In this document: positions 8,140 through 46,806 of the stretch, piece after piece
Layout: every line of letters begins with the position of its first letter
Position numbering within the stretch: position 1 is the stretch's first letter
Assembly (NCBI GenBank): GCA_041663145.1
Contig: JBAZRG010000001.1
Coordinates: forward strand, 10,467-74,466
Direction of reading: 5' to 3'
From: Minisyncoccota bacterium
Lineage (GTDB): Bacteria > Patescibacteriota > Minisyncoccia > Phycocordibacterales > PALSA-1337
Length of the DNA: 64,000 nucleotides
Program-made: the position numbers and the translations under genes
The notes under the pieces: generated by a model
Database searches by the model: none
Seen by the model: only the letters and a program-made list of their open reading frames with translations
What the model was told of the DNA's origin: nothing

Positions 8140-8177
8140 AATTCATCGAGTACGATCTCGATCGTGTAAACTGTTTC

Positions 8178-9515: not shown

Positions 9516-9667
9516 TGTTGAGATCGTTGAGGTTAGTGGTGGTGAGAATAAGAAATGATGAAATCATTATATTTAACGATAATTTATCTCGATTTGAAAT
9601 CAATTTTATTCAGATTTTACTCTCGGAGATTACAGTATATCTGTTATAAGAAAAATAATAATATCAT

Positions 9668-9910: not shown

Positions 9911-9927
9911 CGGACCTCAGGAATCCC

Positions 9928-11286: not shown

Positions 11287-11357
11287 ATAATTTTTACGGG
11301 CTTGAGGTTTTGAAGATCAGTATTTATTGTCGCTTGGTATATATCTTTAGTATTTAT

Positions 11358-12281
11358 CTAGAGCCACTTCCTTTTCTTGAAATATGCCCATAGCACAACG
11401 GTCAAGACGATCATGCCAGCAAGTATTATGAACCAACCGTAAGATGTTCCGATGAGAGGTACGTTTAGTGCTGGGATAGTGAGGAGCGAAGCTATGAATG
11501 TTAATGGATAAAAGATGAAAGCGACCAGAGTCAAGACTTTGATGATTTCATTTTGTCTGGTGGAAAGCAGGGAATCGTTCGTCTCACGCAGATCAGCGAG
11601 CAATTCACGAGAATTTACTATGTGATCATGAATAACGTTAAATTCGTCTCGAATATCTCGAATGTAAGTTTCAAAATCATTGCCGAAAAAGTTTTGATTC
11701 TGACTCTTTACCAATTCTTCCCAGATATCATGATGTGTTCGGACAGTCTGCTTGATGTCGATCAGTTCACGTGATATATCAGAAAGGACTTCGACCATCT
11801 TTCTCTCTTCTCCTTTGAAGATGGCATTTTCGGCTGATAGCAGTGAATCTTTTATATTTTCCAGATCTTCGATGAGTCCAGCATAGAGGCGCTTTACCAT
11901 ATAGTAAAAGAGATAGCCGGCATGTTCGATCTTTTCTTCTTTATTCAATATGGAATTTGTCTCAAATATTTTGCCGAAATATTCCAATTGCTCGATAGTG
12001 TCGGTTCGAGATGTGATGAGAAAAGTTTTTCCGATCACGAAATCAATTTCACGATTGACGATCTCATGATTGCCGTTTTTGCGCAGTCGAACTGGCAATG
12101 TCAGAACAACCATGATGTATTCTTGATAAAAATCGATCTTGGCTATGGACGATGAAGTCTTTAGTTCTTCACCGACTAATGGATGCAAATCGTAGCGCTT
12201 TATGAGTCCGGAAATCTCATCATCATTTGGTGACTCTAGATCTATCCAGACCACTCCTCGATATGTATGTGTTGATGTCAT
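11358..12281 (-). CDS. corA: CorA-like magnesium/cobalt transporter (divergent GMN motif)
   Basis: Cytoplasmic domain plus two C-terminal TM helices. FYPLTFIASLL aligns with the CorA YGMNF region, but GMN is not conserved. Confidence 0.55.
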   Translation of the reverse strand: MTSTHTYRGVVWIDLESPNDDEISGLIKRYDLHPLVGEELKTSSSIAKIDFYQEYIMVVLTLPVRLRKNGNHEIVNREIDFVIGKTFLITSRTDTIEQLEYFGKIFETNSILNKEEKIEHAGYLFYYMVKRLYAGLIEDLENIKDSLLSAENAIFKGEERKMVEVLSDISRELIDIKQTVRTHHDIWEELVKSQNQNFFGNDFETYIRDIRDEFNVIHDHIVNSRELLADLRETNDSLLSTRQNEIIKVLTLVAFIFYPLTFIASLLTIPALNVPLIGTSYGWFIILAGMIVLTVVLWAYFKKRKWL

Positions 12282-12295
12282 GATGGCATTATACT

Positions 12296-13699
12296 TTAAA
12301 AAATGTAACCGTATAGGACTATAACGGTGAATACTATATAAAATATCGAAGCCAAGATCATAAAGATATTGGTGATAATTCCCGGACGAAGCGGTTCTGG
12401 CAGGCGAAAATTATTTATATAAAAGAGAACTGGAGTATAAACGGCCATAGTGAGACCGCCTAATACCGCGCTAATCGTGAGCAATACCAGAGGTTGTTCT
12501 ATGGTTAATAGAAATGAACTCAAAATCACAACAACTATTACCAATGAATAATACAATTTATTTAATGGTACATCTTTGATCCATGTGAGACGAGCTTTGA
12601 ATGGTCCTGTATGTGAATTGACATAGAGAATATCCGAAGTGATCCTTGAAAAAGCGTCGATAACGGTCCACATGACTGAAAAGAGCATGAGGAATGCCAT
12701 TATGAGGAACACATTGAAACCTATCGGTCCCCAGTTTTCACCAAATATATGCGCCTGGACGACAGCCACATCTAGTCCTTCAGGAATCAATCCTTGCGGT
12801 GTGAGTATGGCGTAGGCATTGACACTCAACAATAATAGCGTGATGAGTCCAAGCAACCAAAATATCAATCCTTGATCGATCCTGATGAAGCGCATCCATT
12901 TTTTCCAGCGTCGCAAATGTTCCGGATGAGCTTCGAAACGATATCCTTCGTAGGAGACCGCTTCGGATTTTCCGGTGATGGGGTTTAGGATACGACCGAC
13001 GTGACGACCCATGCCTATTTGTTTGTCGCGATACCATAGTGACACGCATAGGTTCAAAAGTCCGCCAGCTCCAGCAAAAACGATTGCGGCCAAGAGTACT
13101 GGTAGATCCACTCCGCTCGGTATGAAGCCAAAGTTTGTGATGCCTAGGAGCGCACCTTTTATGTCTTCCAAAGATAGAGACATGATGCTAGATATTACAA
13201 GCAGAACAAAGAAAGTTGGCACTATTATTTTCAATGACCCTTCGAGTATGGCATATGCTCTCTTTCCGAGCATAGTCAAAGTAAGCACCAAAAGGAGACT
13301 AACCACTGCCCAGAGAATGTAGCTTCCAAAACCGACAAGTTCACGGACTGTCGTGCCAATAGCTGCAGCCCAGCCGGGCCAGATGTAAAGTAATACAGCT
13401 GAGAACAACCAAAAGGGCGCGAACCATTTGAATACTCTGGAAGATGAAGTAAAGAAACTTTCGCCGCTAGCTAGAGCATGTCTGGCTACTTCTTGATTTA
13501 TGAAATATTGGAATGTAATACCGACTATGGCTGCCCAAAGTATGCCGAGACCGTGTTTGGTGACTAGGTGTGGCCACATGATGAGTTCTCCTGTGCCTAT
13601 AGCCAAACCCATGACTACAATACCAACTCCCAGCATCTTCGACCAATGTGGCGGATCGGGCAGTTCACGCGTCTGTTTTTCGCCATAATGGTCGATCAT
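12296..13699 (-). CDS. Nramp-related divalent metal transporter family protein
   Basis: About 11 TM helices. QEVARHALASGE resembles Nramp QELSARLGxVTG. The DPGN motif is replaced by GTGELIM, similar to Nramp-related Mg transporters. Confidence 0.45.
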   Translation of the reverse strand: MIDHYGEKQTRELPDPPHWSKMLGVGIVVMGLAIGTGELIMWPHLVTKHGLGILWAAIVGITFQYFINQEVARHALASGESFFTSSSRVFKWFAPFWLFSAVLLYIWPGWAAAIGTTVRELVGFGSYILWAVVSLLLVLTLTMLGKRAYAILEGSLKIIVPTFFVLLVISSIMSLSLEDIKGALLGITNFGFIPSGVDLPVLLAAIVFAGAGGLLNLCVSLWYRDKQIGMGRHVGRILNPITGKSEAVSYEGYRFEAHPEHLRRWKKWMRFIRIDQGLIFWLLGLITLLLLSVNAYAILTPQGLIPEGLDVAVVQAHIFGENWGPIGFNVFLIMAFLMLFSVMWTVIDAFSRITSDILYVNSHTGPFKARLTWIKDVPLNKLYYSLVIVVVILSSFLLTIEQPLVLLTISAVLGGLTMAVYTPVLFYINNFRLPEPLRPGIITNIFMILASIFYIVFTVIVLYGYIF

Positions 13700-29773: not shown

Positions 29774-31432
29774 CTATTTGATCGGAAAAATGATTGAAAC
29801 ATTTGCTCCTTTATCGTTGCCATCGGAATGTATGGTGAGTGATCCTCCATGAGCCTTCATCATCGCTCTGGCCACAGAGAGACCGATACCCATGCCGATA
29901 GGGTGAGCGGTCTTGGCCTGATCTCCACGATAAAAGAGTGAGCCTTCGATACGTTTCTTGTCTGTCTCGGTAAAGCCGATGCCGGTATTTGCGATGTTGA
30001 GTTCAAAATGATCTTCTTTCATTTCAGTTGTGACATCTATCGTACCCTTGTTTTTGTTATATCGTATGGCATTTTCGATGACAATCAGAATAACTTCGTG
30101 GATCTTGGAACGATCGATCATAAGTGGTGGCCAATGTTCCGGTGAGGTCTCCATGTTCACAGTCAGATTTTGATGTGTGATCTCAGCATTGAGTTCATCA
30201 AGGACTTCATCGATGATCGGTTTCAAACTCATTTTCTCAATATTCAAAATCGGCGTGCCGACCTTGATGGCGGTGATCGAAAGAAAGTCATCAACGATTC
30301 TCATCAGTCGACTGGTGGCAGTACTCATCCTGTCCACAGCCTCTCTGTATTCCGTGCCAATCTCCCCGTATGCACCGCTTTGCATATTTTCCAGCTCCCA
30401 CCGTATGCCCGTGACCGGAGTACGCAGATGATGCTGTGTGATCATGATGAATTGATCTTTTGTTTCATTGAGTTTTTCCAAGTCCTTCCTAGCTCTTTTT
30501 TCTAAGTCATAAGCGGTTCTCACCTCCGCTGTTTGCTCGGCCACTTTTTGTTCGAGGTGCAGGTTGAGGAAGGTGAGTTTTTCTTTTTGAATAGATTCAC
30601 GTAAAACTCCTTTAATAAGATAAGCTGCAAGTGCTGTGAATACAATAAATGGTGCAATTCGACCCAAAATTCCAAGTGGAGTTTCGATAAATATGTTTAT
30701 AAAAAATATTACTGTCATGCCAACAGCAAGCACTTCAGTAACAACAGCGCGAATATCCATTTGACGGTATTTGAATATCGCATATGCCATTATTGGAATC
30801 CAGATTATCTCACTTACGGTACCAAGCCAATTCAGGTCAAAATATCCGAGACGTGGCAGGATAATGCTGAGAATACTTGGTGGTGTAGCACCGACGATTA
30901 TTACTAGAAGCATATATTTTAAATTTGCCTTTGTTCTCAGATCATTACAGATACGGTATTTTCTAAACAGTATTAACGTACCAAAGATAAAAAATCCGAA
31001 GAAAAATATCTCAAAAATAAATGATATCGAACCAAAATACCAGCCCCATGGATGGCTGACTGTTAACGGAAATACAGATTTGATAATAAGGTTTGTAAAT
31101 AAAAACACATAAAGCATTAATGATTGAAATATTATAAGTGACCATAGAATTATCTTATCAATCCCTTTATCTTCAGGATATACAAGAAAAAAATATAAGA
31201 ATGACGCTGCGACAGTACTTCCTAAGAAATATGTTAATCGACAATAGAGTAGAGCATATTCGCTATTTATTGAAGTTACGAAAAGTCCCATTGATATTAT
31301 CCAAATAGTGACCCATAGAATACAATGAGCGAAGATTCTTGAAGAAATTGTTTTACTACCCATAAAGATTACTAAATCTAGACTTCCGATTAAGACTGCC
31401 GTGATTCCGATTAATAAAGCATATATAGACAT
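29774..31432 (-). CDS. membrane sensor histidine kinase
   Basis: Multi-TM N-terminal domain; H-box HHLRTPVTGIRW; G-box GIGLSVARAMMKAHGG. Confidence 0.75.
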   Translation of the reverse strand: MSIYALLIGITAVLIGSLDLVIFMGSKTISSRIFAHCILWVTIWIISMGLFVTSINSEYALLYCRLTYFLGSTVAASFLYFFLVYPEDKGIDKIILWSLIIFQSLMLYVFLFTNLIIKSVFPLTVSHPWGWYFGSISFIFEIFFFGFFIFGTLILFRKYRICNDLRTKANLKYMLLVIIVGATPPSILSIILPRLGYFDLNWLGTVSEIIWIPIMAYAIFKYRQMDIRAVVTEVLAVGMTVIFFINIFIETPLGILGRIAPFIVFTALAAYLIKGVLRESIQKEKLTFLNLHLEQKVAEQTAEVRTAYDLEKRARKDLEKLNETKDQFIMITQHHLRTPVTGIRWELENMQSGAYGEIGTEYREAVDRMSTATSRLMRIVDDFLSITAIKVGTPILNIEKMSLKPIIDEVLDELNAEITHQNLTVNMETSPEHWPPLMIDRSKIHEVILIVIENAIRYNKNKGTIDVTTEMKEDHFELNIANTGIGFTETDKKRIEGSLFYRGDQAKTAHPIGMGIGLSVARAMMKAHGGSLTIHSDGNDKGANVSIIFPIK

Positions 31433-31482
31433 ATTGTGTAAGTATAATGGTATATTCTATATCGTGCTATAATACAGCAATT

Positions 31483-32034
31483 ATGGAATTTAAAGGAAAA
31501 AAGATTTTAGTTGGCGTTACTGGAGGAATTGCGGCATATAAAACGTGTTCCCTTGTAAATATATTGATTGCAAAGGGTGCCGAAGTTCGAGTTGTTATGA
31601 CTGATAATGCAAAAAAATTTATTGCGCCATTGACTTTTCAAGCACTAACTAATCATCCAGTCTATGATGATCTTTGGCAGCCTGTGGATCAAAATATTGT
31701 CGAACATATAACGTTATCGCATTGGCCAAATATAATACTTATTATGCCTGCAACTGCTAATACTATAAGTAAGTTATCTATCGGTTTGGCGGATAATTTA
31801 TTGACGACAATAATCCTAGCGAGTTTGCAAACAATAAAAGTTGTTGTTGTTCCTGCTATGAATTCATTGATGTGGGAAAATCCAATCACACAAAATAATA
31901 TTAAATCTTTAGAGCAACTAGATAAATTTGTATTTGTTGAACCAAGATCGGGTATTCTTGCATGTAGAGATGAAGGTAAAGGTAAGATTGCAGAAAATGA
32001 TGAGATTGTAAAAGTGGTTGAATCGTTATTTTAA
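31483..32034 (+). CDS. coaC: phosphopantothenoylcysteine decarboxylase (flavoprotein; CoaC domain as a separate gene)
   Basis: KKILVGVTGGIAAYKT and MPATANTISKLSIGLADNLL motifs; start taken at the internal ATG. Confidence 0.75.
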   Translation: MEFKGKKILVGVTGGIAAYKTCSLVNILIAKGAEVRVVMTDNAKKFIAPLTFQALTNHPVYDDLWQPVDQNIVEHITLSHWPNIILIMPATANTISKLSIGLADNLLTTIILASLQTIKVVVVPAMNSLMWENPITQNNIKSLEQLDKFVFVEPRSGILACRDEGKGKIAENDEIVKVVESLF

Positions 32035-32035
32035 A

Positions 32036-32692
32036 ATGAACTCAGATTTTTCATTAAAAGGATCAAAAATTCTTGTTACGGCAGGATCTACATGGATAGC
32101 TATTGACAGTGTTCGAATAATCACGAATATTTTCAAGGGTAAAATTGGTTTAACTATAGCTCAGATTGCTTCACAGTTAGGTGCGGATGTTACGTTATTT
32201 CTCGGACCATCACTTGATGTATCAACAATTGAACTACCGCCAACCTTATCTATAAAAAGGTTTAAATATTTTGATGAATTAGATGAACTTGTCAGAATTA
32301 CATTAAAAGGTCAAAAATTTGATGCTATTATACATTCTGCTGCCGTCTCTGATTTTATGATGGATAAACAAGTAATAGGAAAGATTAAATCTGATGTTCA
32401 AAATTTATCATTAAATCTGATTCCGACAAGAAAAATCATTGATGAAATAAGACATCTTGCGCCAAAAGCCTATCTAGTTAAATTTAAATTGGAAGTAGGA
32501 ATATCGGTTGATAATCTTATTGATATAGCATTTGCAAGCTTGAATAAATCAAATGCTGATTTGATCGTTGCAAATATCTATGATCCTCAGTTTCATGATC
32601 ATGAGGCATATATAATTGATAAGGATAGGAATGTTAAGAATATAAAAGGAAAAATTGATATTGCTACAGAGATTTTAAGACATGTAATATGA
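32036..32692 (+). CDS. coaB: phosphopantothenate--cysteine ligase (CoaB domain as a separate gene)
   Basis: KILVTAGSTWIAIDSVRIITNIFKGKIG motif. ATG lies 1 nt after the coaC stop (an alternative TTG at 32018 would overlap). Confidence 0.7.
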   Translation: MNSDFSLKGSKILVTAGSTWIAIDSVRIITNIFKGKIGLTIAQIASQLGADVTLFLGPSLDVSTIELPPTLSIKRFKYFDELDELVRITLKGQKFDAIIHSAAVSDFMMDKQVIGKIKSDVQNLSLNLIPTRKIIDEIRHLAPKAYLVKFKLEVGISVDNLIDIAFASLNKSNADLIVANIYDPQFHDHEAYIIDKDRNVKNIKGKIDIATEILRHVI

Positions 32693-33495
32693 ATAATGAA
32701 GAATTAGCTCCATTTCTAGAGCCAACATTTTATTGTGATGTATATCACCCGAGTATTCAAAAGGTTGCCTTAGAATTTCAGAAAAAAGCTTTGAATCAAG
32801 TTGATCTTGCAAAATTGTTATTTTACTTTGTTAGAGATGAAACATATTATCGTGTTGGACATTGGACAAAGAAAGCATCGCAGACTCTAAAAAATAGATC
32901 CGGTACGTGTACTAACAACGCTAATTTACTTATCGCGCTGTTACGTGCTCAAAGAATTCCGGCTGGTTATGGTGTTATGAATGTGGTCGGTCAAGAATAT
33001 TTTGGTCCAGTTATATTGCCAAATTTAGCCAGAAATGTTTCAAGTAGATCGAAACATGTATATTGTTTCGTCTATTTGAATAATAAGTGGATAAAATGTG
33101 ATCCATCAGATGATGAACCATTGTCGCTCAGTACTCACCATTTAAATCCACAGAGTAGAATAGTAGAGTGGGACGGAAATACCGATGCAATGTTAAATCT
33201 CGATCCAGATCATATTCTTAATGATGAAGGACCGATTGCGAATATTGATCATATTATTGGTAAAAAGATGAAATATAGGAGAATGATCCCTGTCTTTATT
33301 GGTAATAAATACATTCAATTTCTTCGAGAAAGGGGTAAGTATATAGATAGTATTGATCATTTAGATCCAGCTTTTCGGCAATGGTTATTTATGAATAATG
33401 TATCATTATATATTTTTTATAGGATTTATTTTGTATTAGAGTCTATAATAAGGGGGCACAAGATTAATGCAGAGGATATTTTAAACATTAATTAA
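32689..33495 (+). CDS. transglutaminase-like cysteine peptidase superfamily protein
   Basis: GTCTNNANLL (Cys), HVYCFVY (His) and CDPSDD (Asp) give a Cys-His-Asp core order. Confidence 0.5.
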   Translation: MNNEELAPFLEPTFYCDVYHPSIQKVALEFQKKALNQVDLAKLLFYFVRDETYYRVGHWTKKASQTLKNRSGTCTNNANLLIALLRAQRIPAGYGVMNVVGQEYFGPVILPNLARNVSSRSKHVYCFVYLNNKWIKCDPSDDEPLSLSTHHLNPQSRIVEWDGNTDAMLNLDPDHILNDEGPIANIDHIIGKKMKYRRMIPVFIGNKYIQFLRERGKYIDSIDHLDPAFRQWLFMNNVSLYIFYRIYFVLESIIRGHKINAEDILNIN

Positions 33496-33497: not shown

Positions 33498-35123
33498 ATG
33501 CTTGATATTTACCAATCAGCAGTTATAATTACAGCTTTCTTTTTTACAGGATTTGGAGGATTTGCTATCTGGAAAAATCAGAAAGATGTTCAAGCGCGAC
33601 GATTCGCATTGCTGTCATTTGCTTTTGCTGCTTGGAGTTATTCATGGTTTTTCTTATTAAAGACTACATCCAATGCAGACTCTGCACTTATCTTAGCGAG
33701 GATTCTTAATCTGGGTGCAACTTTTATTCCAGTGTTATTTTTGCATTGGGTATTTGTTGCAACTGAATATGAGAAAAAAAATAAGATGTTCATGTATTTA
33801 TGCTATTTAATTACTTTATTTTTTGCAGCTTTTAGCTTTACAGATCTATATGTTACTGGTGTTAGAGCAATATCAATATTTGCATATTGGCCAATAGCTG
33901 GTCCATTTTATATTTATTTTATATTTATAGGTTATATTGGTTTTATTTTGACTGGGTTAATAATGTTGATTAAAAAGTTTTTTAGCACATCTGGCATTAT
34001 CCATTATCGTACCGGTTACTTGTTTGTTGGATCAATGCTTGGATTCATAGGCGGATCAGTCAATTTTCCTATGATGTTTGGAATTGTTATTCCACAACCA
34101 TACGATCTTATTGGAATATTTATGCTTATGATGAGTCCGATCATTTTTAGTTACGCAGCTTTACAGTATCAGTTGTTCGATATTCGTAATGTAGCGGTTC
34201 AATTATTTGCTGGTGCACTTAACATTGTGTTTATAATAAATTTGCTACTAGCAAAAACATTTTCTCAAATATTTATTAATGCTTTGTTACTTGTCTTCAC
34301 ATTATCATTTACTGTTTTATTGTTACGAACATTAAAAAAGGAGACTTTACAACGCGAACGCATCGAACTACTCGCCGCTGATCTGGAGAAAGCTAATGTG
34401 CGACTGATCGATTTGGATCGGCAGAAGTCGGAGTTCATATCGTTCGCCACACATCAGTTGCGCGCACCGCTCACGGCCATGAAGGGGTATGCGTCATTGT
34501 TGTTGGAAGGGGATATGGGACCTCTGCCGGAGAGTGCCAAACAGGGCGTTTCGAGAATATTCGATTCGACAAACACGCTGGTCTCGATCGTCAATGATTA
34601 TCTGAATATAAGCCGAATAGAACTAGGTGCGATGAAATACGCTTTTGAGACGATCGATCTAAGGATGCTGGTCGAAGACACGATCGCTGAGCTCAAGCCA
34701 AATCTGGAGAAGACCAAATTGAAGTTTACTTTTGATCATAAAGACGACGGTACTGATTATCGGATGACGGCGGATCGGGACAAATTGAAGCAGGTTCTTG
34801 CAAACGTCATAGACAATTCTATAAAATATACTCCGCAGGGAAGTGTGACCGTGACACTCACTCTGGATCGTTCCAAACATAGATTTGTCTTGAAAGTCAA
34901 AGATACCGGAGTGGGTATTGCTTCTGATGTCATGCCTCGTCTATTCCAAAAATTCAGCAGAGCTGAGAATGCGAATAAGACGAATATCAGGGGTAGTGGT
35001 TTGGGCTTGTATGTCGCCAAACAGATGATTGAAGCTCATCACGGCACTATTCGAGCCGAATCAGAGGGTGAAGGTAAAGGATCAACATTCATCGTGGAAT
35101 TTGAACCGTTGGCTAAAGCTTGA
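33498..35123 (+). CDS. membrane sensor histidine kinase (multi-TM sensing domain)
   Basis: About 7 TM helices; H-box SFATHQLRAPLTAMKGY; G-boxes DTGVGIA and GSGLGLYVAKQM. Confidence 0.75.
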   Translation: MLDIYQSAVIITAFFFTGFGGFAIWKNQKDVQARRFALLSFAFAAWSYSWFFLLKTTSNADSALILARILNLGATFIPVLFLHWVFVATEYEKKNKMFMYLCYLITLFFAAFSFTDLYVTGVRAISIFAYWPIAGPFYIYFIFIGYIGFILTGLIMLIKKFFSTSGIIHYRTGYLFVGSMLGFIGGSVNFPMMFGIVIPQPYDLIGIFMLMMSPIIFSYAALQYQLFDIRNVAVQLFAGALNIVFIINLLLAKTFSQIFINALLLVFTLSFTVLLLRTLKKETLQRERIELLAADLEKANVRLIDLDRQKSEFISFATHQLRAPLTAMKGYASLLLEGDMGPLPESAKQGVSRIFDSTNTLVSIVNDYLNISRIELGAMKYAFETIDLRMLVEDTIAELKPNLEKTKLKFTFDHKDDGTDYRMTADRDKLKQVLANVIDNSIKYTPQGSVTVTLTLDRSKHRFVLKVKDTGVGIASDVMPRLFQKFSRAENANKTNIRGSGLGLYVAKQMIEAHHGTIRAESEGEGKGSTFIVEFEPLAKA

Positions 35124-35198: not shown

Positions 35199-35630
35199 TC
35201 ATTGGAACAGCCGAGCCTTTTGTGGTTTGTCCTTCTTTCCCTGCCATTCTATATACCGTTTTACCTGTACCTCATTCAAACCGACGGTGGAGGAGAAATA
35301 CCCGACGCTCCAGATGCCGTCGGATTCAAGGTATATCTCCCGAATGAACCTGAATCTTTTTCGGAGAGCTCTACTCGAATTAGCTTTAAGTTTTCCGACA
35401 GCATCTGAGACGTTGGTATTCGGAGCTATCTCAATCTGAATATGCACATGGTCTTCATCAGTGTTCATGACTTCAATCCAGAGCGTCGGATATTTCTTTA
35501 CGGTGCTGTAGAGTGACTTCTTGAGTTCTAGGAGTACATATGGCTTGAGTATCTTGTATCTGTATTTGGTGCCCCAAACTATATGGTACTGATGTTGGTA
35601 TGTGCTGTGATTAAGCTTACGAAGCCTCAT
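35199..35630 (-). CDS. tnpA: IS200/IS605 family transposase TnpA (Y1 HUH)
   Basis: YHIVWGTKYRYKIL N-terminus, HVHIQIEIAPN (HUH) and catalytic Tyr region; 143 aa. Confidence 0.8.
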   Translation of the reverse strand: MRLRKLNHSTYQHQYHIVWGTKYRYKILKPYVLLELKKSLYSTVKKYPTLWIEVMNTDEDHVHIQIEIAPNTNVSDAVGKLKANSSRALRKRFRFIREIYLESDGIWSVGYFSSTVGLNEVQVKRYIEWQGKKDKPQKARLFQ

Positions 35631-35736
35631 GGAAACAGCCTACCACATCTATGTTACGTAAGTGACTCCGACAAACACATCCCCGCCCTTCCATGGTGGT
35701 TGCACGGGGTTTGTCCGGGCGGGGTTTATTTTTATG

Positions 35737-35771
35737 TAAAAAAAGCGCGTCTGAAGGCGACGCGCTTTTTG
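35737..35771 (-). terminator. intrinsic terminator at the IS200 left end (blocks read-through into tnpA)
   Basis: AGCGCGTC-loop-GACGCGCT with flanking A- and T-runs. Confidence 0.5.
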
Positions 35772-35793
35772 ATCTATCGTCAAACGGTTATGC

Positions 35794-36003
35794 TTAATCG
35801 ATTGACGTATAGTCCATCCAACCTTTCCATTCTTTTCGTGGTCTCTTCTGGTTTTTATCGATTGAGACTCGGAAAGAAATTGGAGGACGGATTGCGATCC
35901 GAACCATTTGAGTTGCCTCATCTGGCTGAACCAACCCTACACCTGCAAGCCGCATTATCTCGAAGCAGGGTGTCGAGATATCAGGGCTTACTCTTTTTTT
36001 CAT
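35794..36003 (-). CDS. hypothetical leaderless small ORF (69 aa) abutting the IS left end; possible remnant of a disrupted gene
   Basis: ATG lies 10 nt after the -10 of a TTGACT-N17-TATAAT promoter, and the ORF ends at the IS boundary. Confidence 0.25.
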   Translation of the reverse strand: MKKRVSPDISTPCFEIMRLAGVGLVQPDEATQMVRIAIRPPISFRVSIDKNQKRPRKEWKGWMDYTSID

Positions 36004-36013
36004 ACCACTACAA

Positions 36014-36042
36014 TTATATCATGGTTGGGGTGTGTAAGTCAA
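36014..36042 (-). promoter_or_regulatory. sigma70-like promoter TTGACT-N17-TATAAT (minus strand)
   Basis: Minus strand reads cttgact tacacaccccaaccatga tataat. Confidence 0.45.
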
Positions 36043-36165
36043 GCTGACTTTTGGTAGTATTGGACTAGATAGATTCCAAGTTCATACACTCAATCAGTCT
36101 TATGAGTTGTTAGAAAATAAAAAAGCGTGTGGTTTATTACACGCTCCTGAAAGACCGTTTCTGTA

Positions 36166-37437
36166 TTAGCGGAATGAGGCGCTCATAGCCAATCCGTGTG
36201 CCACACTTGTGAATGCATCTAGGTTGATGATCTTGTCTTCATCAAACATTTCGCAGAATATTTTGCGGACAGCAGGGACAAATGAGGAACCTCCGGTCAA
36301 CAAGACCTTGTCGATTCTTTCTCTTGCGATAGCTGCGTCAGAAAGCGTCTTAGCTACACATGCGGAGATGCCGGCTAGATCCTTTTCAATGAATGAATCG
36401 AATTCAGCTCGGCTTATCGTTTCCTCAATGTGAATACACTTATCGTGATAGCTGATCACAGAACTCACATTCTTTGATAGCTCCGCTTTGGCTTTCTCAA
36501 TCGCTCGGAAGACTGCAAAGCCTTTGTTTTCACGAATCAAATGCTCGAGGTTTTCCAAAAACTTCGGGGCGTCAGCCACACGCTTCATCACACGGATTGT
36601 CTCCAGAGTCTTTCGCTCATTTAGGAAAGGAATCGCATGCCATTCACAAAGCGTATGCACGATCCATCGCGGTACCGATTGGTGAAGATCTCCATCATAA
36701 CTCAAGGTGATATCCTTCCCAAAATGCCGGGCAATCTTCTCCCACATGATCTTCGAATCGAAGGTATCGCCGCCAATATACACACCATTCATGGAAAGTA
36801 TGCGTTGGCGTTTCTCCTTTTGAGTCTTAGGCATTTCAGAATTTAAGCGCATGACAGTAAAGTCAGATGTGCCACCGCCAAAATCTCCCATTAGCACTAT
36901 TTCCTCTTTTGCGGCATCCATCTGCTTGAGATATGCAAGTGTTGCCGCGATAGGCTCGTATTCGAAGCTTATATTTTTGAATCCGGCCTTGCTGGCAGCT
37001 GTTCGGAGCCTCTTTTCTGCCAACTGATCGCAGACCTGTTCATCAGAGAACATAACCGGTCTGCCCATGACAACTTGATCAATATTGTGCCCTAAATGTT
37101 GTTCTCCAAGATATTTGATCTCTTTTAGTATGATCGATACGAGATCATCAATCTCGAAGCGCTGACCGAAGATAGTCGTGCCCGTGAAACTGGCATCCGA
37201 AAGGAATGTTTTCAGTGACTGAAGAAAACGACAAGATCTCCCTTCACTTTTAATATACTCCTCTACGGCTCGTTGACCAACGATATTGTCGTGCTTATGA
37301 TTCATGAACAGGACTGAGCGCAACGTGCTCTCATCCGAAATCATGTTGTTTATCCTCACAACTCGCGTTGAACCAAGTTCAGAAAGCGCAAGCGCTGAAT
37401 TGGTAGTACCGAAATCTAAGCCCATTATTGTTGCCAT
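36166..37437 (-). CDS. Hsp70-family ATPase lacking substrate-binding domain (YegD-like)
   Basis: GLDFGTTNSALA phosphate-1 motif and LLTGGSSFVPAVRK connect-2 motif; 423 aa. Confidence 0.7.
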   Translation of the reverse strand: MATIMGLDFGTTNSALALSELGSTRVVRINNMISDESTLRSVLFMNHKHDNIVGQRAVEEYIKSEGRSCRFLQSLKTFLSDASFTGTTIFGQRFEIDDLVSIILKEIKYLGEQHLGHNIDQVVMGRPVMFSDEQVCDQLAEKRLRTAASKAGFKNISFEYEPIAATLAYLKQMDAAKEEIVLMGDFGGGTSDFTVMRLNSEMPKTQKEKRQRILSMNGVYIGGDTFDSKIMWEKIARHFGKDITLSYDGDLHQSVPRWIVHTLCEWHAIPFLNERKTLETIRVMKRVADAPKFLENLEHLIRENKGFAVFRAIEKAKAELSKNVSSVISYHDKCIHIEETISRAEFDSFIEKDLAGISACVAKTLSDAAIARERIDKVLLTGGSSFVPAVRKIFCEMFDEDKIINLDAFTSVAHGLAMSASFR

Positions 37438-37512
37438 ACTGCACCTCTATTGTTGAATTGTTTTGTACTGGTTTAAAGCGTTCTTCTGTGAGGGTATCAT
37501 AAATTCTAGCGA

Positions 37513-37541
37513 TTGACAATATGGAATCTTCATAATATAGT
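37513..37541 (+). promoter_or_regulatory. sigma70-like promoter TTGACA-N17-TATAGT for the radical SAM operon
   Basis: ttgaca atatggaatcttcataa tatagt; GGAGG Shine-Dalgarno 5 nt before the ATG at 37597. Confidence 0.5.
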
Positions 37542-37596
37542 CGCACAAGAAGTCAGGGTTTAATAACGAACTTTGACATAACAAATGGAGGTGTTT

Positions 37597-39192
37597 ATGG
37601 CTAATAAGATCGGTTTAGTGACTCCTCCTTCTCAATCTCATCGGACTGCTGAGGAAACATTGGGTCTCGGTTATTTGGGTGCAGAATTACGCGCCCATGG
37701 TTACGATGTATGTATTGTTGACGGATGGTTACAATCGCTATCGACGGACGAAATCCTCGATAAGTTAGATTCCGGTACGAGACCTTCCGTTGTGGGAGTG
37801 TCATCGTACTGGTCGAATATAGGACAAGCAGTTGAACTATTGACTGCTCTGCGAAAGCGCTTTGGCGACATTCCAGTGATATGTGGTGGGTACGGACCGA
37901 CTTTCCACGAGAGGGTGTTCTTGGAAAAAGGCTTCACCGCAGTAGTTAAGGGTGAGACAGAACACATTATCGTTCGATTGGTCGATGCATTGCTGTCTGG
38001 GAAATGTTTGGAACTGATTCCAGGCGTGTTCTTCTTGAAGGCTGGCGTGCTGAATGGGACCGACTGTAGTCAGCCTGTTCAAGATCTCGATCAGTTAGAG
38101 TTTCCAAGTCGAGACACATTACAATCCGCGATCCAGCAAAAGAACTTTGTTCACGTCTGTACTTCACGTGGCTGCGACGGCCACTGCAACTTTTGCTCGG
38201 TATTTTCATTTGCGGCAATGGCTTCGCGTCAACGGCGTTGGAGACAGAGAAGCATTCGGAATATCGTGGATGAAATTCGGTCTCTTCACGAGCGTTTCGG
38301 CGTGACACATTTCAAGTTTGTGGATGATAGTTTTCTTGAATCGCCACGAGACTTGGCATGGGTCGAACACTTCTGCAGAGAACTTGCACGGTATTCACTG
38401 CAGATTAAATTCAGAACACAGGTTCGGGCAGAACGTCTGAATCAAGAGGTTGTGCATACCTTGAAGGAAGCCGGGTGGTTCTCTACAAGCATTGGCGTGG
38501 AAAACTTTTCCAGGGCTGCGCTTAGGCGCATGGCGAAGTCTGCTAGCAGAGAAGATAATATTTTGGCGGTTGAACTTCTAACCGCGAAGAAAATCTACAC
38601 GCAAATGGGACTGATCTTGTTCGATCCGTTCACAACAATGGATGAATTGTCTGAAAATCTCGGATTCCTACAGAAATATCGGTGGCCTGTGACAAAGGGC
38701 GTTTTCACTGAAATGTACGCCGCTGAAGGGACCATCTTTTCAAGGAATCTCGATCGAAACGGGCTGCTTCGGAAGGACCCTCTATTGCAGAATCACAGCT
38801 ATTGGATTCATAATCCTCGCGCTCGCCGAGCCTACGACATGTTGAAAGCTTGGCATAGGTCACATTCAGTAGTTTATGACTGGGTCATAGACTCGCTCAC
38901 TGCGCCGAAAGTCCTTATCGAAGAGGACTACAATCGAGTGTACGTATTATTCAGTAGGCTACAAGCACTCGATCTTGACTTCTTTGAAAAGGTTCTTGAA
39001 CATGTGGTCGAAAAGGAAATCGAAACCGACCATGCGTTTGTGCAGGAGGTTGTCGCACGCTCGGCCGAGACATATACGTCGGTTGAGTCTAAAATTGAAG
39101 GGGTATACCGTAGCAACGGCTTAAGCTACATGGCCGTACCGAATCCGTTCCTTGGCCAAGCATGGTCTGGGGACACAAACGAAAGCAGATAA
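37597..39192 (+). CDS. B12-binding (class B) radical SAM protein
   Basis: N-terminal Rossmann-like B12-binding domain; radical SAM cluster motif CDGHCNFC (CxxxCxxC); ~200-aa C-terminal domain. Confidence 0.75.
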   Translation: MANKIGLVTPPSQSHRTAEETLGLGYLGAELRAHGYDVCIVDGWLQSLSTDEILDKLDSGTRPSVVGVSSYWSNIGQAVELLTALRKRFGDIPVICGGYGPTFHERVFLEKGFTAVVKGETEHIIVRLVDALLSGKCLELIPGVFFLKAGVLNGTDCSQPVQDLDQLEFPSRDTLQSAIQQKNFVHVCTSRGCDGHCNFCSVFSFAAMASRQRRWRQRSIRNIVDEIRSLHERFGVTHFKFVDDSFLESPRDLAWVEHFCRELARYSLQIKFRTQVRAERLNQEVVHTLKEAGWFSTSIGVENFSRAALRRMAKSASREDNILAVELLTAKKIYTQMGLILFDPFTTMDELSENLGFLQKYRWPVTKGVFTEMYAAEGTIFSRNLDRNGLLRKDPLLQNHSYWIHNPRARRAYDMLKAWHRSHSVVYDWVIDSLTAPKVLIEEDYNRVYVLFSRLQALDLDFFEKVLEHVVEKEIETDHAFVQEVVARSAETYTSVESKIEGVYRSNGLSYMAVPNPFLGQAWSGDTNESR

Positions 39193-39194
39193 CT

Positions 39195-40331
39195 ATGAAT
39201 GTTCATGGATCGCAAATTGAAAACATCGGTTGGACTCTTGGAAACGACTGTCCGTACCGATGTCCTCACTGCTATTCGCATATCGTCCGAAATAGAGGAC
39301 GCAACCTCGAAATCGCGGATGCGGATCGTATCATCAGTCAGTTACAGAAGATTGGCGTCAAGTCGGTGAACCTCGGAGGAAATGAGCCAATCTATACGAG
39401 CGGTATTGATCCGAGGAAAACAATACTGCCTTACATCATCAGGTCGTTGTACGATGCCAAGATTGCCGTAGGGTTGACAACTGCAGGTATCACTCTCGTG
39501 TGTTTGGAACGCTTGTTTCCGGACACGATACCGATGCTCAATGATGTTGATATCAGCCTCGACAGTCCGTTTCCGGACGAACACAACAAGAATCGGGGAG
39601 CTCCGCTCTTCAATCTTGCTCTCAAAGCGATAGGGATTTGCCGTGAATACGGCACTGAACGGACAATAGTCGTGTGCGGTATGCGCTGGAATCTTTCCGA
39701 TAGGCACCTTATCGCGCTTGCGGAGCTCGCTCGGAGTCATAAGGCCCTGATACGCATAAACTTCATGAAACCGACCGAGGCGAAACACATGTCTCTGGTT
39801 CCAGATGTTGAACAGTTCTACCACGCGTGCCAGTTTCTTTTTTCGCAATGCAAGGTAGTCGAGATTGGCGAGCCGCTAGGTTCGACGATGGTAGGTCAGG
39901 GTTCGAGAGGATGTCCTTGTGGAACGAAGTCGTTCCGCATACATTCGATCGACACATCTGGACGAGTTCAAGTCAGTCCGTGCGTGTACGCACACGATTA
40001 CCGAGTGGGGGATCTGCTAAAGGATGATCTGTCCGTGATCCTTGGGAGCCCTCAATTCGAGGTCTTCCGGAACAGACGCAGTAATCCAGAAACAATAAAG
40101 GAGTGCGTCGGCTGTCAGCATCTGCTCCTATGCAGGGGCGGTTGCACATCTCGCGCATATCTATGGTCCCAGTTCACTGGTGGGAACATTCCCGCACAGA
40201 ACGCTAAAGATCCGTATTGCATATGGGACTTCACAGGCAGTACAACTTGCCATGTTCCAACTAGGACGAAACAGGATGTATTGCTGGTTCATCGTGACTA
40301 CTTGTGCACTGTGATCGTGGATCCGTCGTGA
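39195..40331 (+). CDS. radical SAM protein with C-terminal SPASM domain
   Basis: CPYRCPHC (CxxxCxxC) near the N-terminus; C-terminal CPCG...C...CVGCQHLLLCRGGC SPASM-type cysteine array. Start at the ATG 3 nt after the upstream stop. Confidence 0.75.
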   Translation: MNVHGSQIENIGWTLGNDCPYRCPHCYSHIVRNRGRNLEIADADRIISQLQKIGVKSVNLGGNEPIYTSGIDPRKTILPYIIRSLYDAKIAVGLTTAGITLVCLERLFPDTIPMLNDVDISLDSPFPDEHNKNRGAPLFNLALKAIGICREYGTERTIVVCGMRWNLSDRHLIALAELARSHKALIRINFMKPTEAKHMSLVPDVEQFYHACQFLFSQCKVVEIGEPLGSTMVGQGSRGCPCGTKSFRIHSIDTSGRVQVSPCVYAHDYRVGDLLKDDLSVILGSPQFEVFRNRRSNPETIKECVGCQHLLLCRGGCTSRAYLWSQFTGGNIPAQNAKDPYCIWDFTGSTTCHVPTRTKQDVLLVHRDYLCTVIVDPS

Positions 40332-40346
40332 TCGTTCCTTGTCAAC

Positions 40347-40382
40347 GAGAGTCGTGGCAGTATGCCCCGACTCTCTTTTTTA
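40347..40382 (+). terminator. Rho-independent terminator after radical SAM pair
   Basis: GAGAGTCG-loop-CGACTCTC followed by TTTTTT. Confidence 0.6.
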
Positions 40383-40457
40383 TTGACTGCGAACATTGTG
40401 TCATTTTATGCTAATATGGTTCCATCGTTTTAATAATGTAATCTCTCATGAAACATC

Positions 40458-40823
40458 ATGGATACAAAACCAAAGAGCAGTAATATTGTCAGTGCCAAAG
40501 ATTTTTTAGGAAAAGTAGTGCAAGTCACTATTGATAGGCCACTAAATTCAAAGCATCATAAATTTGGTTGGGAGTATAAACTTAATTATGGATTTATACC
40601 GGACACCATGTCTGCGGATGGGGAGGAGCTGGACGCGTATGTTATGGGATCCGATGAACCAATCGCGACATTTAAAGGCAAGTGTATAGCTGTAGTACAT
40701 CGCACAAATGATGACGACGACAAACTTATTGTCGTACCAGAAGAAATGGAATTTACGGACGAGCAGATCGTATCTGCCACAAATTTCCAGGAACAGTATT
40801 TCAAATCCGTAATATTGCGATAG
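40458..40823 (+). CDS. short inorganic pyrophosphatase-like protein (family I fold fragment)
   Basis: NYGFIPDTMSADGEELDAYVMG...DDKLIVV aligns with PPase NYGFIPQT..DGDPLDVLV..DDKIIAV. At 121 aa it is much shorter than canonical PPase. Has its own TTGACT / TGCTAATAT promoter. Confidence 0.45.
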   Translation: MDTKPKSSNIVSAKDFLGKVVQVTIDRPLNSKHHKFGWEYKLNYGFIPDTMSADGEELDAYVMGSDEPIATFKGKCIAVVHRTNDDDDKLIVVPEEMEFTDEQIVSATNFQEQYFKSVILR

Positions 40824-40895
40824 GTATAGAGCGAGTCAGTGAATGTTTAAAAAAAAGACCATCCGAGCGGATAGCCTTGTAGGGACGGATGGAAT

Positions 40896-41486
40896 TCACT
40901 TTCGAGACAGTTTGTCTGCAATAGATTGGTGAATCTCGTCTATTGTTTGGTTCGCATCGATAACGAGCCAATTGTTTTCTGTTGCGAGACGCAGGAAGAT
41001 TTTCCGCTGTCGCTGGAAGAATGCTGCGCCAAGGTTATCGAACCTTGAGTGAGTAGGCTTAGCAACGTTCCTGCTCATCGCTTCGCCCGGGTCCAGATCC
41101 AGTAGCACTGTGGTCGGAGCGAAGCTAGCCGGACAGACAGTCTTTACTAGTCTGTTTAGAAACTCAGTATCGAAGTTAGCGTCTTCGAAGTAACTGAGAA
41201 GAGAACCTACGCCTCTATCGCAGATAATGTTGGCCCCCTTCGCCACCTCCGGTCCGATTATCTCGGAAAAAAGGTGTGCTTTACAGCAGAGGAATGCGAA
41301 CAGTTCGGCCTCCTTTGTAATTGGAGTGTCTGCCGTAAGGATAGACTTGATCTGTCGACCAAGCTGTGTACTTTCAAGGTCCTTGACGATTATGGAGCGC
41401 TGGCCTTGACGTTCGAACCAGTGATTGAGAAGTCGGCATTGAGTCGTTTTGCCGACACCGTCGATACCTTCGATCTCTATTATCAT
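40896..41486 (-). CDS. tmk: thymidylate kinase
   Basis: P-loop IEGIDGVGKTTQ; DRGVGS lid region; 196 aa. Confidence 0.8.
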   Translation of the reverse strand: MIIEIEGIDGVGKTTQCRLLNHWFERQGQRSIIVKDLESTQLGRQIKSILTADTPITKEAELFAFLCCKAHLFSEIIGPEVAKGANIICDRGVGSLLSYFEDANFDTEFLNRLVKTVCPASFAPTTVLLDLDPGEAMSRNVAKPTHSRFDNLGAAFFQRQRKIFLRLATENNWLVIDANQTIDEIHQSIADKLSRK

Positions 41487-45753: not shown

Positions 45754-46806
45754 ATGTTTTATAAATACATATTAAAACCTATATTTTTCCGTTTTGATCC
45801 CGAAGTTGTGCATGACTTCATGGTTTCGGTGGGGGAGAAGCTTGGCAGATTTTCAATAGGCCGATTTATAATAGGTCTAATGTACGATTATCGTGGTACA
45901 GACGTGAGCAAAGTCGTCGATGGTATAAGATACCGTACGCCTTTTTTGCTTTCGGCCGGTTTTGACTACAATGGTCAATTGTCAAAGATATTGCCAAAGA
46001 TTGGTCTAGGGGGAGAAGAGGTTGGCTCGGTAACCTCTCGTCATTGCGATGGCAATTCGAAACCGCGATTGATACGTTTACCAAAATCACGAAGCATCAT
46101 AGTCAATAAGGGACTCCGAAATGATGGGGTCGATGTTGTCATTCAGAGATTGAAGCGATCCAAGAGATCAAAAACTCCTTTTATAGTCGGTGTTTCCATA
46201 GCGCGCACAAATGATGCGCAATCTGTGTCGATCCAAGCTGGTATAGATGATTACGTCTATTCATTCAAAAGATTAAATCAAGAAAACGTCGGGGATTATT
46301 ATACGATCAATATCTCATGTCCAAATTCATTCGGAGGTGAAGCTTTCAATACACCGGAGCTCCTGACGAGGTTGCTCACCGCTTTTCGGGAAGTGCCATG
46401 TACAAAGCCATTATATGTAAAAATGCCGATCAATATTCCTTGGAATCAATTCGAGTCTTTGCTCGAAATCATTGTCAAGTTTGGTTTGAATGGGGTAGTT
46501 ATCGGTAATCTAAATAAAAATTATGATGATCTCGACTATCGTGAAGAAGCGCCCGATACGTATAGGGGCGGTCTCTCCGGTAAGCCATGCCGTCTATTGT
46601 CGACTGATCTCATAAGAAAGACTCGCCTCAAATATTCCAAGAATTTCACTATTATCGGAGTTGGCGGAGTTATGTCACCCGAAGATGCCCTAGAGAAATT
46701 TGAGGCGGGTGCTGATCTTATCCAATTGATTACGGGTATTATATTCGAGGGTCCGGGGCTTATTAAAAAGATGTGCGGAGCGTATGCAAAAAGAATAGGG
46801 AAGTGA
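45754..46806 (+). CDS. pyrD: dihydroorotate dehydrogenase (class 2-like)
   Basis: N-terminal FFRFDPEVVHDF and IIGVGGVMSPEDALEKFEAGADLIQLITG FMN-binding motifs. Confidence 0.8.
   Translation: MFYKYILKPIFFRFDPEVVHDFMVSVGEKLGRFSIGRFIIGLMYDYRGTDVSKVVDGIRYRTPFLLSAGFDYNGQLSKILPKIGLGGEEVGSVTSRHCDGNSKPRLIRLPKSRSIIVNKGLRNDGVDVVIQRLKRSKRSKTPFIVGVSIARTNDAQSVSIQAGIDDYVYSFKRLNQENVGDYYTINISCPNSFGGEAFNTPELLTRLLTAFREVPCTKPLYVKMPINIPWNQFESLLEIIVKFGLNGVVIGNLNKNYDDLDYREEAPDTYRGGLSGKPCRLLSTDLIRKTRLKYSKNFTIIGVGGVMSPEDALEKFEAGADLIQLITGIIFEGPGLIKKMCGAYAKRIGK

Follow-up and report, generated by a model that had tools for sequence, protein, structure and literature searches.

Radical S-adenosylmethionine (SAM) routes to nucleoside analogs are few, namely, those to oxetanocin, to albucidin, and to the 3'-deoxy-3',4'-didehydronucleoside triphosphates (ddhNTPs) of viperin, and they have yielded leads for antivirals and opened a new perspective on innate immunity. 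OxsB and OxsA belong to the biosynthesis of oxetanocin A, which is encoded on a plasmid of Bacillus megaterium. OxsB contracts the deoxyribose ring of dAMP, dADP, or dATP and works with the HD phosphohydrolase OxsA (PMC7074753; PMC9204698), and albucidin requires just two radical SAM genes, one of which is OxsB-like (PMC7074753). Here, we describe a locus with two adjacent radical SAM genes, A and B, in a 64,000-nucleotide stretch of the genome of a Minisyncoccota bacterium (contig JBAZRG010000001.1 of assembly GCA_041663145.1, positions 10,467 to 74,466; this whole stretch is referred to as the window). A preliminary description of the locus had proposed a stand-alone pair of enzymes for the maturation of a peptide or cofactor. 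Our analysis points instead, with a probability of roughly 0.55, to A and B as the core of a conserved, horizontally mobile cassette that remodels a phosphorylated nucleoside into a modified nucleoside or nucleotide. In the window, this cassette probably comprises a leftward gene for an Hsp70-like ATPase, the rightward genes A, B, and PPl (a mini pyrophosphatase-like phosphohydrolase), and a leftward dTMP kinase (Tmk) gene (positions 36166 to 41486; Table 1).

Domain architecture of the radical SAM enzymes

Gene A lies in an open reading frame (ORF) spanning positions 37585 to 39192. Its start was set at the ATG at 37597, because a GGAGG sequence is located just upstream (37588 to 37592) and a database protein 100% identical to A, annotated in a Candidatus Paceibacterota metagenome-assembled genome (MAG), has 531 amino acids (aa). 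The cobalamin-binding-like N-terminal domain that had been read in A was recovered by Pfam as a B12-binding domain (PF02310; residues 24 to 132; 53 bits against a cut-off of 32.1), followed by a Radical_SAM domain (PF04055; residues 193 to 355; 61 bits). The CxxxCxxC motif (C193/C197/C200) is invariant in 34 homologs; also invariant are G97-G98, at the end of a predicted strand (residues 94 to 97), and G119-E120, before a helix (residues 125 to 134). In OxsB, TsrM, and TokK, a Gly-Gly pair on strand beta-4 and a Gly-Glu pair at the start of helix alpha-5 hold the cobalamin tail (PMC9204698). With its B12 Rossmann domain, its cluster motif, and both cobalamin-tail motifs, A is, as judged from its sequence, a class B radical SAM enzyme and is predicted to bind cobalamin.

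The solved protein closest to A in sequence is OxsB (phmmer against the PDB; E = 7.7e-16; 61 bits, with the next best at ~35 bits), the alignment spanning residues 51 to 360 of A and residues 167 to 495 of OxsB. OxsB is also the closest by fold in a Foldseek comparison with the AlphaFold2 (AF2) model of A (predicted local distance difference test [pLDDT] score, 90; template modeling [TM] score, 0.75; E = 2e-24). This alignment runs through the C-terminal helix bundle, and the model has long C-terminal helices at residues 407 to 435, 442 to 472, and 475 to 506. Further fold matches are TsrM, CysS, MgmA, AprD4, and TokK (TM scores, 0.55 to 0.62). All NCBIfam equivalogs scored below their cut-offs (BchE, 123/481 bits; HpnR, 90/650; BzaD, 79/450; PhpK, 66/600), and a lipid B12-radical SAM model was also among the best subthreshold matches. 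Although its architecture resembles that of OxsB, A does not belong to the OxsB family.

Gene B begins 2 bp after the stop codon of A (TAA, 39190 to 39192; ATG, 39195), the spacing that had been reported; the two genes are translationally coupled, and the start of B is backed by 378-aa homologs at 100% coverage. B is a radical SAM/SPASM enzyme, so that the earlier reading of an adjacent radical SAM pair with CxxxCxxC clusters and a C-terminal SPASM array in the second protein is borne out. Its CxxxCxxC motif (C19/C23/C26) is invariant, and the C-terminal seven-cysteine SPASM domain scores above cut-off in both PF13186 (25.9 versus 21.5 bits) and TIGR04085 (35.7 versus 27 bits), with C240, C242, C263, C304, C307, C313, C317, and C342 invariant. 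Two invariant motifs are specific to the family, namely, NxGWTxGN, N-terminal to the cluster motif, and HxxYLCT at the C terminus. Since the cluster motif is reached already at residue 19, B has no N-terminal recognition domain, and its AF2 model (pLDDT, 92) shows no extra N-terminal domain. The fold matches include anSME (the best, with a TM score of 0.64), BlsE, SkfB, CteB, ChlB, MoaA, and viperin, with identities of 15 to 19% for BlsE, MoaA, and anSME. BlsE is a nucleoside decarboxylase, MoaA acts on GTP, and viperin acts on CTP. By its modeled fold, B is a generic SPASM/twitch enzyme.

No solved relative of B was found by sequence, and B fell below every curated NCBIfam cut-off (best, MftC with 77/265 bits). 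It scored 28 of the required 180 bits against viperin_w_prok, over the core only, and 30 bits against PADLOC pVip, over the N-terminal core only. The comparison with subfamily models that the preliminary description had suggested thus places the pair in no characterized subfamily, and neither A nor B could be assigned above cut-off to a subfamily with Pfam, NCBIfam, PADLOC, or PHROGs. No study of the A/B family turned up in full-text searches of the literature. A paralog of B (25 to 29% identical) serves as the second enzyme in some lineages; it is radical SAM/SPASM-like and falls in no curated class.

Two further kinds of proteins appeared among the homologs (proteins and loci of our set are numbered with P and L, respectively). 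P0031 (719 aa) is an apparent A-B fusion, joining A residues 1 to 474 to B residues 135 to 378 with loss of the B cluster motif; it was rejected as a Rosetta-stone fusion and taken as a deletion chimera or assembly artifact. Giant proteins with tandem B12-radical SAM modules (up to six matched stretches; P0398 [2096 aa], P0400, P0405, and P0419 [5727 aa]) are unusual but unrelated to the cassette.

Distribution, gene content, and probable mobility of the cassette

A one-genome-per-species scan yielded 80 loci; neighbors were counted over 82 loci within 8 kb of A, and dereplication at 65% identity of A gave 32 groups. Homologs of A and B occur mostly in Patescibacteria, and in Streptomyces and Proteobacteria as well. 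The loci are carried by Patescibacteria, Alphaproteobacteria (Enterousia, Rickettsiales, and Hoeflea), gut Clostridia, Bacilli, and Mollicutes; by Muribaculaceae (Bacteroidota), Paenibacillus, Sporolactobacillus, and Ihubacter; and by the actinomycetes Streptomyces, Nocardia, Lentzea, and Streptoalloteichus. The A/B family forms ~40 clusters at 50% identity (>=400 bits, full length) among 1.84 billion representatives.

B is present in 73 of the 82 loci and in 28 of the 32 groups. Next in frequency among the groups are PPl (19/32), the Hsp70-like gene (15/32), a Tmk-like kinase (12/32), and an amidohydrolase (8/32), followed by HprK-like and HelD genes (6/32 each), Nudix and AMP-binding genes (5/32 each), and an MTAP-like phosphorylase (4/32). 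The pair had been described as stand-alone; it is not, since the flanking Hsp70-like, PPl, and dTMP kinase genes are partners conserved across phyla. The preliminary description had named, as the finding that would speak against it, a housekeeping pair with conserved neighbors; the neighbors are indeed conserved, but no characterized pathway matches.

The gene order varies among lineages. In Patescibacteria, an Hsp70-like gene is followed by A, B, and PPl and then by Tmk, in some cases with an amidohydrolase gene in between. Among the 12 Patescibacteria loci, the core genes alone recur (11 to 12 of 12) and the outer flanks vary, so that the block from 36166 to 41486 behaves as a unit. Staskawiczbacteria have B' (the second radical SAM gene), Tmk, A, PPl, and the Hsp70-like gene on a single strand. 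The order is Nudix, A, B, an adenosine-deaminase-like gene, Tmk, and Hsp70-like in Alphaproteobacteria; B, MTAP-like, NDT-like, HprK-like, A, PPl, and HelD in Bacilli and Mollicutes; and HprK-like, A, B, PPl, and amidohydrolase in Muribaculaceae. The two longest arrangements are those of gut Clostridia (His-phosphatase, B, A, methyltransferase, c8, Tmk-like, P-loop, Gmk-like, PPl, and HelD) and of actinomycetes (A, B, in some cases PPl, phosphotransferase, HprK-C-like, MTAP/PNP, ThyA-like, NDT-like, ThiD/PfkB, DAO, and TenA, translationally coupled). The clostridial neighbor c8 was considered as a CYTH protein on account of a CYTH-like N-terminal ExExK motif and rejected, as no profile match backs this assignment.

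The cassette looks mobile, given its presence on plasmids, the neighboring recombinase and tRNA genes, and the IS200 element in the window. Plasmid-borne copies of A and B are found on a linear plasmid of Streptomyces clavuligerus and on a conjugative Enterococcus plasmid. In gut Clostridia, a large serine recombinase gene or integrase fragments flank the cassette (e.g., L047:16574-18124), and tRNA genes lie 1 to 8 kb from it in three lineages (L013:8926-9012, L033:1735-2054, and L050:3793-3945); these flanks are consistent with genomic-island mobility. A phage origin was considered and found to be weak, as phage records give only a 26% match, in Streptomyces phage SF3, and IMG/VR gives one contig. 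On the IMG/VR contig L092 (UViG_3300018411_001308; 35-12428), phage tail genes and an IS1595 transposase gene precede A (apparently frameshifted) and B, which are followed by a gene of unknown type, a methyltransferase fusion, and a major facilitator superfamily (MFS) transporter gene; the cassette there may be prophage-adjacent cargo or host flank. Locus L004 (DUFX01000080.1; 8568-13881), from a MAG labeled as a Woesearchaeota archaeon, carries the Hsp70-like/A/B/PPl/Tmk block at 59 to 81% identity to the window, reflecting either misbinning or a transfer between candidate phyla radiation (CPR) bacteria and DPANN archaea. Approximately 1 kb upstream of its Hsp70-like gene lies an Rfam LOOT RNA (7416-7533; 82 bits), which is absent from the window.

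Phosphohydrolases and nucleotide-related partners

PPl belongs to PF00719 (43 bits versus a cut-off of 23.5) and aligns solely to the family I pyrophosphatase core, the C-terminal part being absent and the acidic DGxxxD and DDK motifs being kept. It is not a full-length family I inorganic pyrophosphatase: NCBIfam equivalogs remain below cut-off (33/200 and 29/246 bits), the full fold is lacking, and the protein has 121 aa versus 167 to 214 aa in the matched solved pyrophosphatases. In 46 of the 82 loci, across several phyla, a PPl of 50 to 65% identity is encoded no farther than 8 kb from A. In Alphaproteobacteria, a Nudix gene takes its place, and in two A homologs a phosphohydrolase domain is fused to the C terminus, namely, an HD domain in P0381 (L093:102-2255) and His_Phos_1 in P0392 (L094:2291-4138). 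A phosphohydrolase is thus an integral partner of A, its fold being interchangeable among four unrelated families (PPl, Nudix, HD, and His_Phos_1).

PPl itself was rejected as an exclusive marker of the cassette, as its family is ~10 times larger than the A/B family and occurs without A and B; it is a general small phosphohydrolase that has been recruited to the cassette. In Patescibacteria, PPl genes without A and B (e.g., L086:6001-6381, L088:6001-6339, and L090:6001-6342) usually adjoin a NUDIX gene and, at individual loci, also His_Phos, methyltransferase, APH, or CYTH genes, in what looks like a separate, uncharacterized nucleotide-handling gene set.

The Tmk of the window passes the TIGR00041 equivalog (109.6 versus 83.25 bits), and a Tmk gene adjoins the cassette in 11 of the 12 Patescibacteria loci. 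P-loop kinases of the NMP-kinase type recur among the neighbors, Tmk/dNK-like and Gmk-like ones among them, and up to three P-loop kinases are encoded in the cassettes of gut Clostridia. Cassette kinases of other lineages match PADLOC VakA (41 bits) and PDC-M51B (37 to 53 bits), and A-family relatives match PDC-M51A at 34 to 80 bits; the window A and Tmk score 40 bits on PDC-M51A and 25 bits on PDC-M51B, respectively, in models that give no thresholds and that A matches over part of its length. Recurrent neighbors further include a DadD/MTA-SAH-deaminase-like amidohydrolase, an MTAP-like phosphorylase, an adenosine-deaminase-family protein (profile against the PDB, E = 1e-10), and, beside the A and B genes of relatives, nucleoside deoxyribosyltransferase-like (Nuc_deoxyrib_tr-like) and ThyA-like genes.

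HelD, an RNA polymerase-recycling motor, is encoded directly beside the cassette (NF041464, 437 versus 419 bits; e.g., L032:15795-17963) in Clostridia, Bacilli/Mollicutes, Muribaculaceae, and one Paceibacterota (L032, L033, L050, L054, L016, L031, L055, L058, L081, and L023), and it could be a self-protection factor against a polymerase-directed nucleotide analog. On the conjugative Enterococcus plasmid, A and B are directly followed by PPl and then by genes for an AMP-binding protein and an MFS transporter; L092 has the order A, B, an unassigned gene, methyltransferase, and MFS transporter; and the translationally coupled Streptomyces operons are flanked by ATP-binding cassette (ABC) transporter genes. 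This combination of the core with methyltransferases, AMP-ligases, MFS or ABC exporters, and HelD in other lineages is the layout of a small-molecule cluster of the nucleoside antimetabolite or antiviral kind.

The Hsp70-like protein matches PF00012 (119 bits) over the nucleotide-binding domain only. The preliminary description had called it YegD-type and divergently transcribed; the Hsp70 nucleotide-binding domain and the orientation stand, and the YegD label is only approximate, because the score of 186 bits falls under the equivalog cut-off of 331. In 20 of the 82 loci, found in Patescibacteria, Alphaproteobacteria, and one gammaproteobacterium, a homolog is encoded no more than 8 kb from A; in L009 and L075, it is on the same strand as A. 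The Hsp70-like gene is a conserved accessory of the cassette.

Proposed pathway and alternative explanations

Under the nucleoside-remodeling reading, the kinase and the phosphohydrolase would set the phosphorylation state of the substrate and product, as OxsA does for OxsB. A, with the domain architecture described above, would cleave SAM at its [4Fe-4S] cluster, abstract a hydrogen from the sugar or base, and then employ cobalamin for a methyl transfer or skeletal rearrangement. B, whose two auxiliary SPASM clusters would serve as the electron sink, would perform a second step on the intermediate, such as an oxidation, a decarboxylation, a dehydration, or a C-C step. The deaminases and MTAP-like phosphorylases of relatives may clear 5'-deoxyadenosine and S-adenosylhomocysteine (SAH) or trim an adenine nucleoside product. 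More speculatively, the Hsp70-like ATPase might, with the use of ATP, chaperone or reactivate the cobalamin and Fe-S enzymes, as ASKHA-type B12 reactivases, the source of this analogy, would suggest. The Hsp70-like protein showed no similarity to known B12 reactivases, and its best sequence matches in the PDB are nucleotide-binding domains of DnaK; because these alone match, the reactivase role stays an analogy.

A more specific version of this scheme can be put forward only tentatively: the cassette might make a nucleotide analog remodeled in its sugar or base (e.g., an oxetanocin-like or C-methylated chain terminator), which the kinases would charge to the triphosphate for use as an antiviral or antagonistic weapon, with HelD providing self-protection and the Hsp70-like protein serving as a reactivase. 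If so, a new and widespread two-radical-SAM pathway, parallel to viperin, would lead to polymerase-poisoning nucleotides, and a nucleotide-analog weapon would be in use in CPR bacteria, gut Clostridia and Bacilli, Alphaproteobacteria, and actinomycetes.

Several observations weigh against nucleoside remodeling. Beyond the domain architecture, the whole assignment rests on gene context. The identity between A and OxsB is only 19%, and A lacks the N-terminal domain of OxsB. The fold matches of B are as much with protein- or peptide-modifying enzymes (anSME, SkfB, and CteB) as with those acting on nucleosides or nucleotides (BlsE, MoaA, and viperin). The fusion proteins P0381 and P0392 each come from a single short metagenomic contig, where read-through artifacts are possible. 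The PPl family comprises 3381 hits, ~10 times as many as the A/B family, and it is found without A and B in Patescibacteria, so that its presence in a CPR locus is weaker evidence than its presence in other phyla. The Tmk of the window may be a plain housekeeping enzyme, perhaps the only dTMP kinase of the cell. A search for riboswitches and other RNA elements in the window and 15 related loci gave no element that would reveal a ligand, only tRNAs and the one LOOT RNA turning up in the related loci. Finally, HprK-like kinases of some lineages give weak matches to NCBIfam models whose names refer to a radical SAM/SPASM cassette (HprK-related kinases A/B and ScmC), a match that also lends some weight to peptide maturation.

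The likeliest of the alternatives, though itself improbable, is that a phosphorylated metabolite other than a nucleotide is modified, such as a cofactor precursor, a sugar phosphate, or an isoprenoid diphosphate. Pyrophosphatase, Nudix, HD, and histidine-phosphatase enzymes act on such substrates too; the best NCBIfam matches of A, all subthreshold, are BchE, HpnR, and the lipid B12-radical SAM model; and the ThiD/PfkB-like, TenA-like, and DAO-type genes of actinomycetes have a thiamine-pyrimidine flavor. However, nucleoside monophosphate (NMP)-type kinases, the phosphorylase, the deoxyribosyltransferase-like and adenosine-deaminase-family genes, and HelD belong specifically to nucleoside or nucleotide chemistry, and no lipid or tetrapyrrole genes recur.

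Less probable still is the modification of a folded protein, perhaps PPl, by anSME-like or Mmp10/MgmA-like chemistry, with the Hsp70-like ATPase presenting the client. The best fold match of B is anSME, which likewise lacks a recognition element for peptides that are made on the ribosome and modified after translation (RiPPs), i.e., an RRE; the protein glutamine methylase MgmA is among the matches of A; the Hsp70-like gene is conserved; and PPl, at 50 to 65% identity, is more conserved than A or B. On the other side, Nudix, HD, or histidine-phosphatase modules can stand in for PPl, and its abundance in genomes that lack A and B does not suit a dedicated substrate. In addition, the mostly conserved Cys of PPl is Val in L031, the Hsp70-like gene is missing in most lineages, and a small molecule is suggested by the exporters, the AMP-ligases, and the several NMP-type kinases.

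The peptide target favored by the preliminary description, with A C-methylating and B cross-linking or epimerizing a RiPP precursor encoded elsewhere in the genome, now appears highly improbable. RiPP pathways commonly include class B radical SAM and SPASM enzymes, ApyD, rSAM_ocin_1, and MftC are among the best subthreshold matches, and SkfB, CteB, and ChlB are among the fold matches of B. All RiPP radical SAM models nonetheless score far below cut-off (MftC, 77/265 bits; ApyD, 95/750; rSAM_ocin_1, 80/282; PqqE, 29/381). As had been reported, no precursor, protease, or exporter gene adjoins the pair, and the intergenic gaps around A and B in the window (159, 2, and 126 bp) are too short for a precursor gene in the immediate locus. 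A conserved small ORF, for which a search across related genomes had been suggested, did not emerge: clustering of the intergenic ORFs of 18 to 75 aa within 3 kb of A and B, over the 82 loci, gave no cluster extending beyond four near-identical genomes. No PqqD-type Pfam match was found in B or its neighbors, and no protease or leader-type gene recurs around A and B. Without a conserved small ORF, RRE, protease, or leader-type gene, a RiPP reading is not supported, and the genes conserved around the pair encode phosphohydrolases, nucleotide kinases, deaminases, and phosphorylases.

A housekeeping dTMP route in reduced genomes, in which A methylates dUMP, PPl is dUTPase-like, and Tmk phosphorylates the product, draws on the genuine dTMP kinase gene adjoining in nearly all Patescibacteria loci and on the many small-genome symbionts among the carriers (CPR bacteria, Enterousia, Mollicutes, and MAGs of gut Clostridia and Bacilli), but it is scarcely credible for a rare and patchy family that is plasmid-borne with exporters, adjoins recombinase and tRNA genes, and co-occurs with ThyA-like genes in actinomycetes, and it leaves the second, SPASM enzyme without a role.

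Features of the locus in the window

The promoter and terminator that had been attributed to the pair were both recovered, as was the IS200 copy beyond the Hsp70-like gene (Table 1). The GC contents of A and B (0.48 to 0.50) are only 1.3 to 1.8 standard deviations (SD) higher than the window mean (0.42; SD, 0.046) in a compositional island test. The IS200/IS605 transposase gene adjoins a seven-transmembrane (7TM) histidine kinase gene on one side and the Hsp70-like gene on the other, with a noncoding stretch separating it from the latter. In the relative L023, the kinase gene is found just upstream of the Hsp70-like gene, separated from it only by a 99-aa ORF and without an insertion sequence. 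Two paralogous HisKA_7TM sensor kinase genes of the window bracket a low-GC block (0.31 to 0.33) that contains split CoaC/CoaB genes and a transglutaminase-like gene. A kinase of the HisKA_7TM family is encoded near the cassette in 5 of the 12 Patescibacteria loci (including L005, L006, L009, and L023); this kinase could regulate the cassette or be there by coincidence. The window also encodes a dihydroorotate dehydrogenase; CPR-type genomes are usually limited in nucleotide biosynthesis.

Table 1. Coordinates of the A/B locus and of surrounding features in the window
Feature	Position	Strand	Remarks
HisKA_7TM sensor kinase	29774..31432	-	Paralog of the second HisKA_7TM kinase
Split CoaC/CoaB genes	31447..32692		Low-GC block
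Transglutaminase-like gene	32689..33495		Low-GC block
HisKA_7TM sensor kinase	33498..35123	+	Paralog of the first HisKA_7TM kinase
IS200/IS605 Y1 transposase	35199..35630	-	NF033573, 105 bits
Noncoding DNA, ~535 nucleotides	35631..36165		Between transposase and Hsp70-like genes
Hsp70-like ATPase, nucleotide-binding domain only, 423 aa	36166..37437	-	Divergent from gene A; PF00012
Sigma-70-like promoter, TTGACA-17-TATAGT	37513..37541	+	11/12 positions; consensus match only
Gene A, cobalamin-type (class B) radical SAM, 531 aa	37597..39192	+	Pfam B12-binding and Radical_SAM
Gene B, radical SAM/SPASM, 378 aa	39195..40331	+	Pfam Radical_SAM, Fer4_12, and SPASM
Intrinsic terminator, 8+4-bp hairpin, then U6	40347..40381	+	Hairpin 40347-40375; -21.8 kcal/mol, z = -4.2
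PPl, mini pyrophosphatase-like phosphohydrolase, 121 aa	40458..40823	+	PF00719
dTMP kinase, 196 aa	40896..41486	-	TIGR00041; convergent with A-B-PPl unit
Dihydroorotate dehydrogenase	45754..46806	+	PF01180, 191 bits

Comparison with known systems

The family comes without a curated model, a solved structure, or a paper found, and its core is compact. It has spread by horizontal transfer over at least six phyla, onto plasmids, and into ultrasmall CPR genomes with few accessory genes to spare. Because the core consists of three genes only (A, B, and the phosphohydrolase), it is worth experimental follow-up, and the identity of its product could reveal new cobalamin/radical SAM chemistry on nucleotides, a new natural antimetabolite, and a role for the enigmatic Hsp70 proteins that consist of the nucleotide-binding domain only (YegD-like proteins).

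Among radical SAM defense systems, Ophion was rejected as a match, its architecture being unrelated. The prokaryotic viperins, in the pVip/VakA pair, and the PADLOC candidate system PDC-M51 resemble the cassette in that a radical SAM enzyme is paired with an NMP-type kinase; viperins, however, have neither a cobalamin enzyme nor a SPASM domain, and B is not a member of the viperin family. With BlsE, MoaA, and anSME, B shares a partial TIM barrel, a C-terminal auxiliary-cluster domain, and the lack of an RRE, but it remains under every curated cut-off and has invariant motifs of its own.

The albucidin genes albA and albB of Streptomyces albus subsp. chlorinus, which were compared by description only, likewise form a nucleoside pathway that includes two radical SAM genes, of which one is OxsB-like; the cloned region also has an annotated thymidylate kinase gene, located five genes upstream of albA (PMC7074753). 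By the same description, the radical SAM gene there precedes the OxsB-like gene, an NrdD-like albC comes next, and AlbA is biotin-synthase-like rather than a SPASM enzyme. The oxetanocin system is matched by A in its cobalamin Rossmann domain, radical SAM domain, and long C-terminal helix bundle, and by the genetic coupling of A to a phosphohydrolase, including the fused HD domain of the relative P0381. It differs in size, A having 531 aa versus 744 aa in OxsB and lacking the N-terminal domain I of ~165 aa, for which there is no room because the B12 domain begins at approximately residue 24. The window locus has no HD gene, the partner being a truncated family I pyrophosphatase, and a second radical SAM enzyme with a SPASM domain, which is absent from the oxs locus, is obligatory in the cassette.

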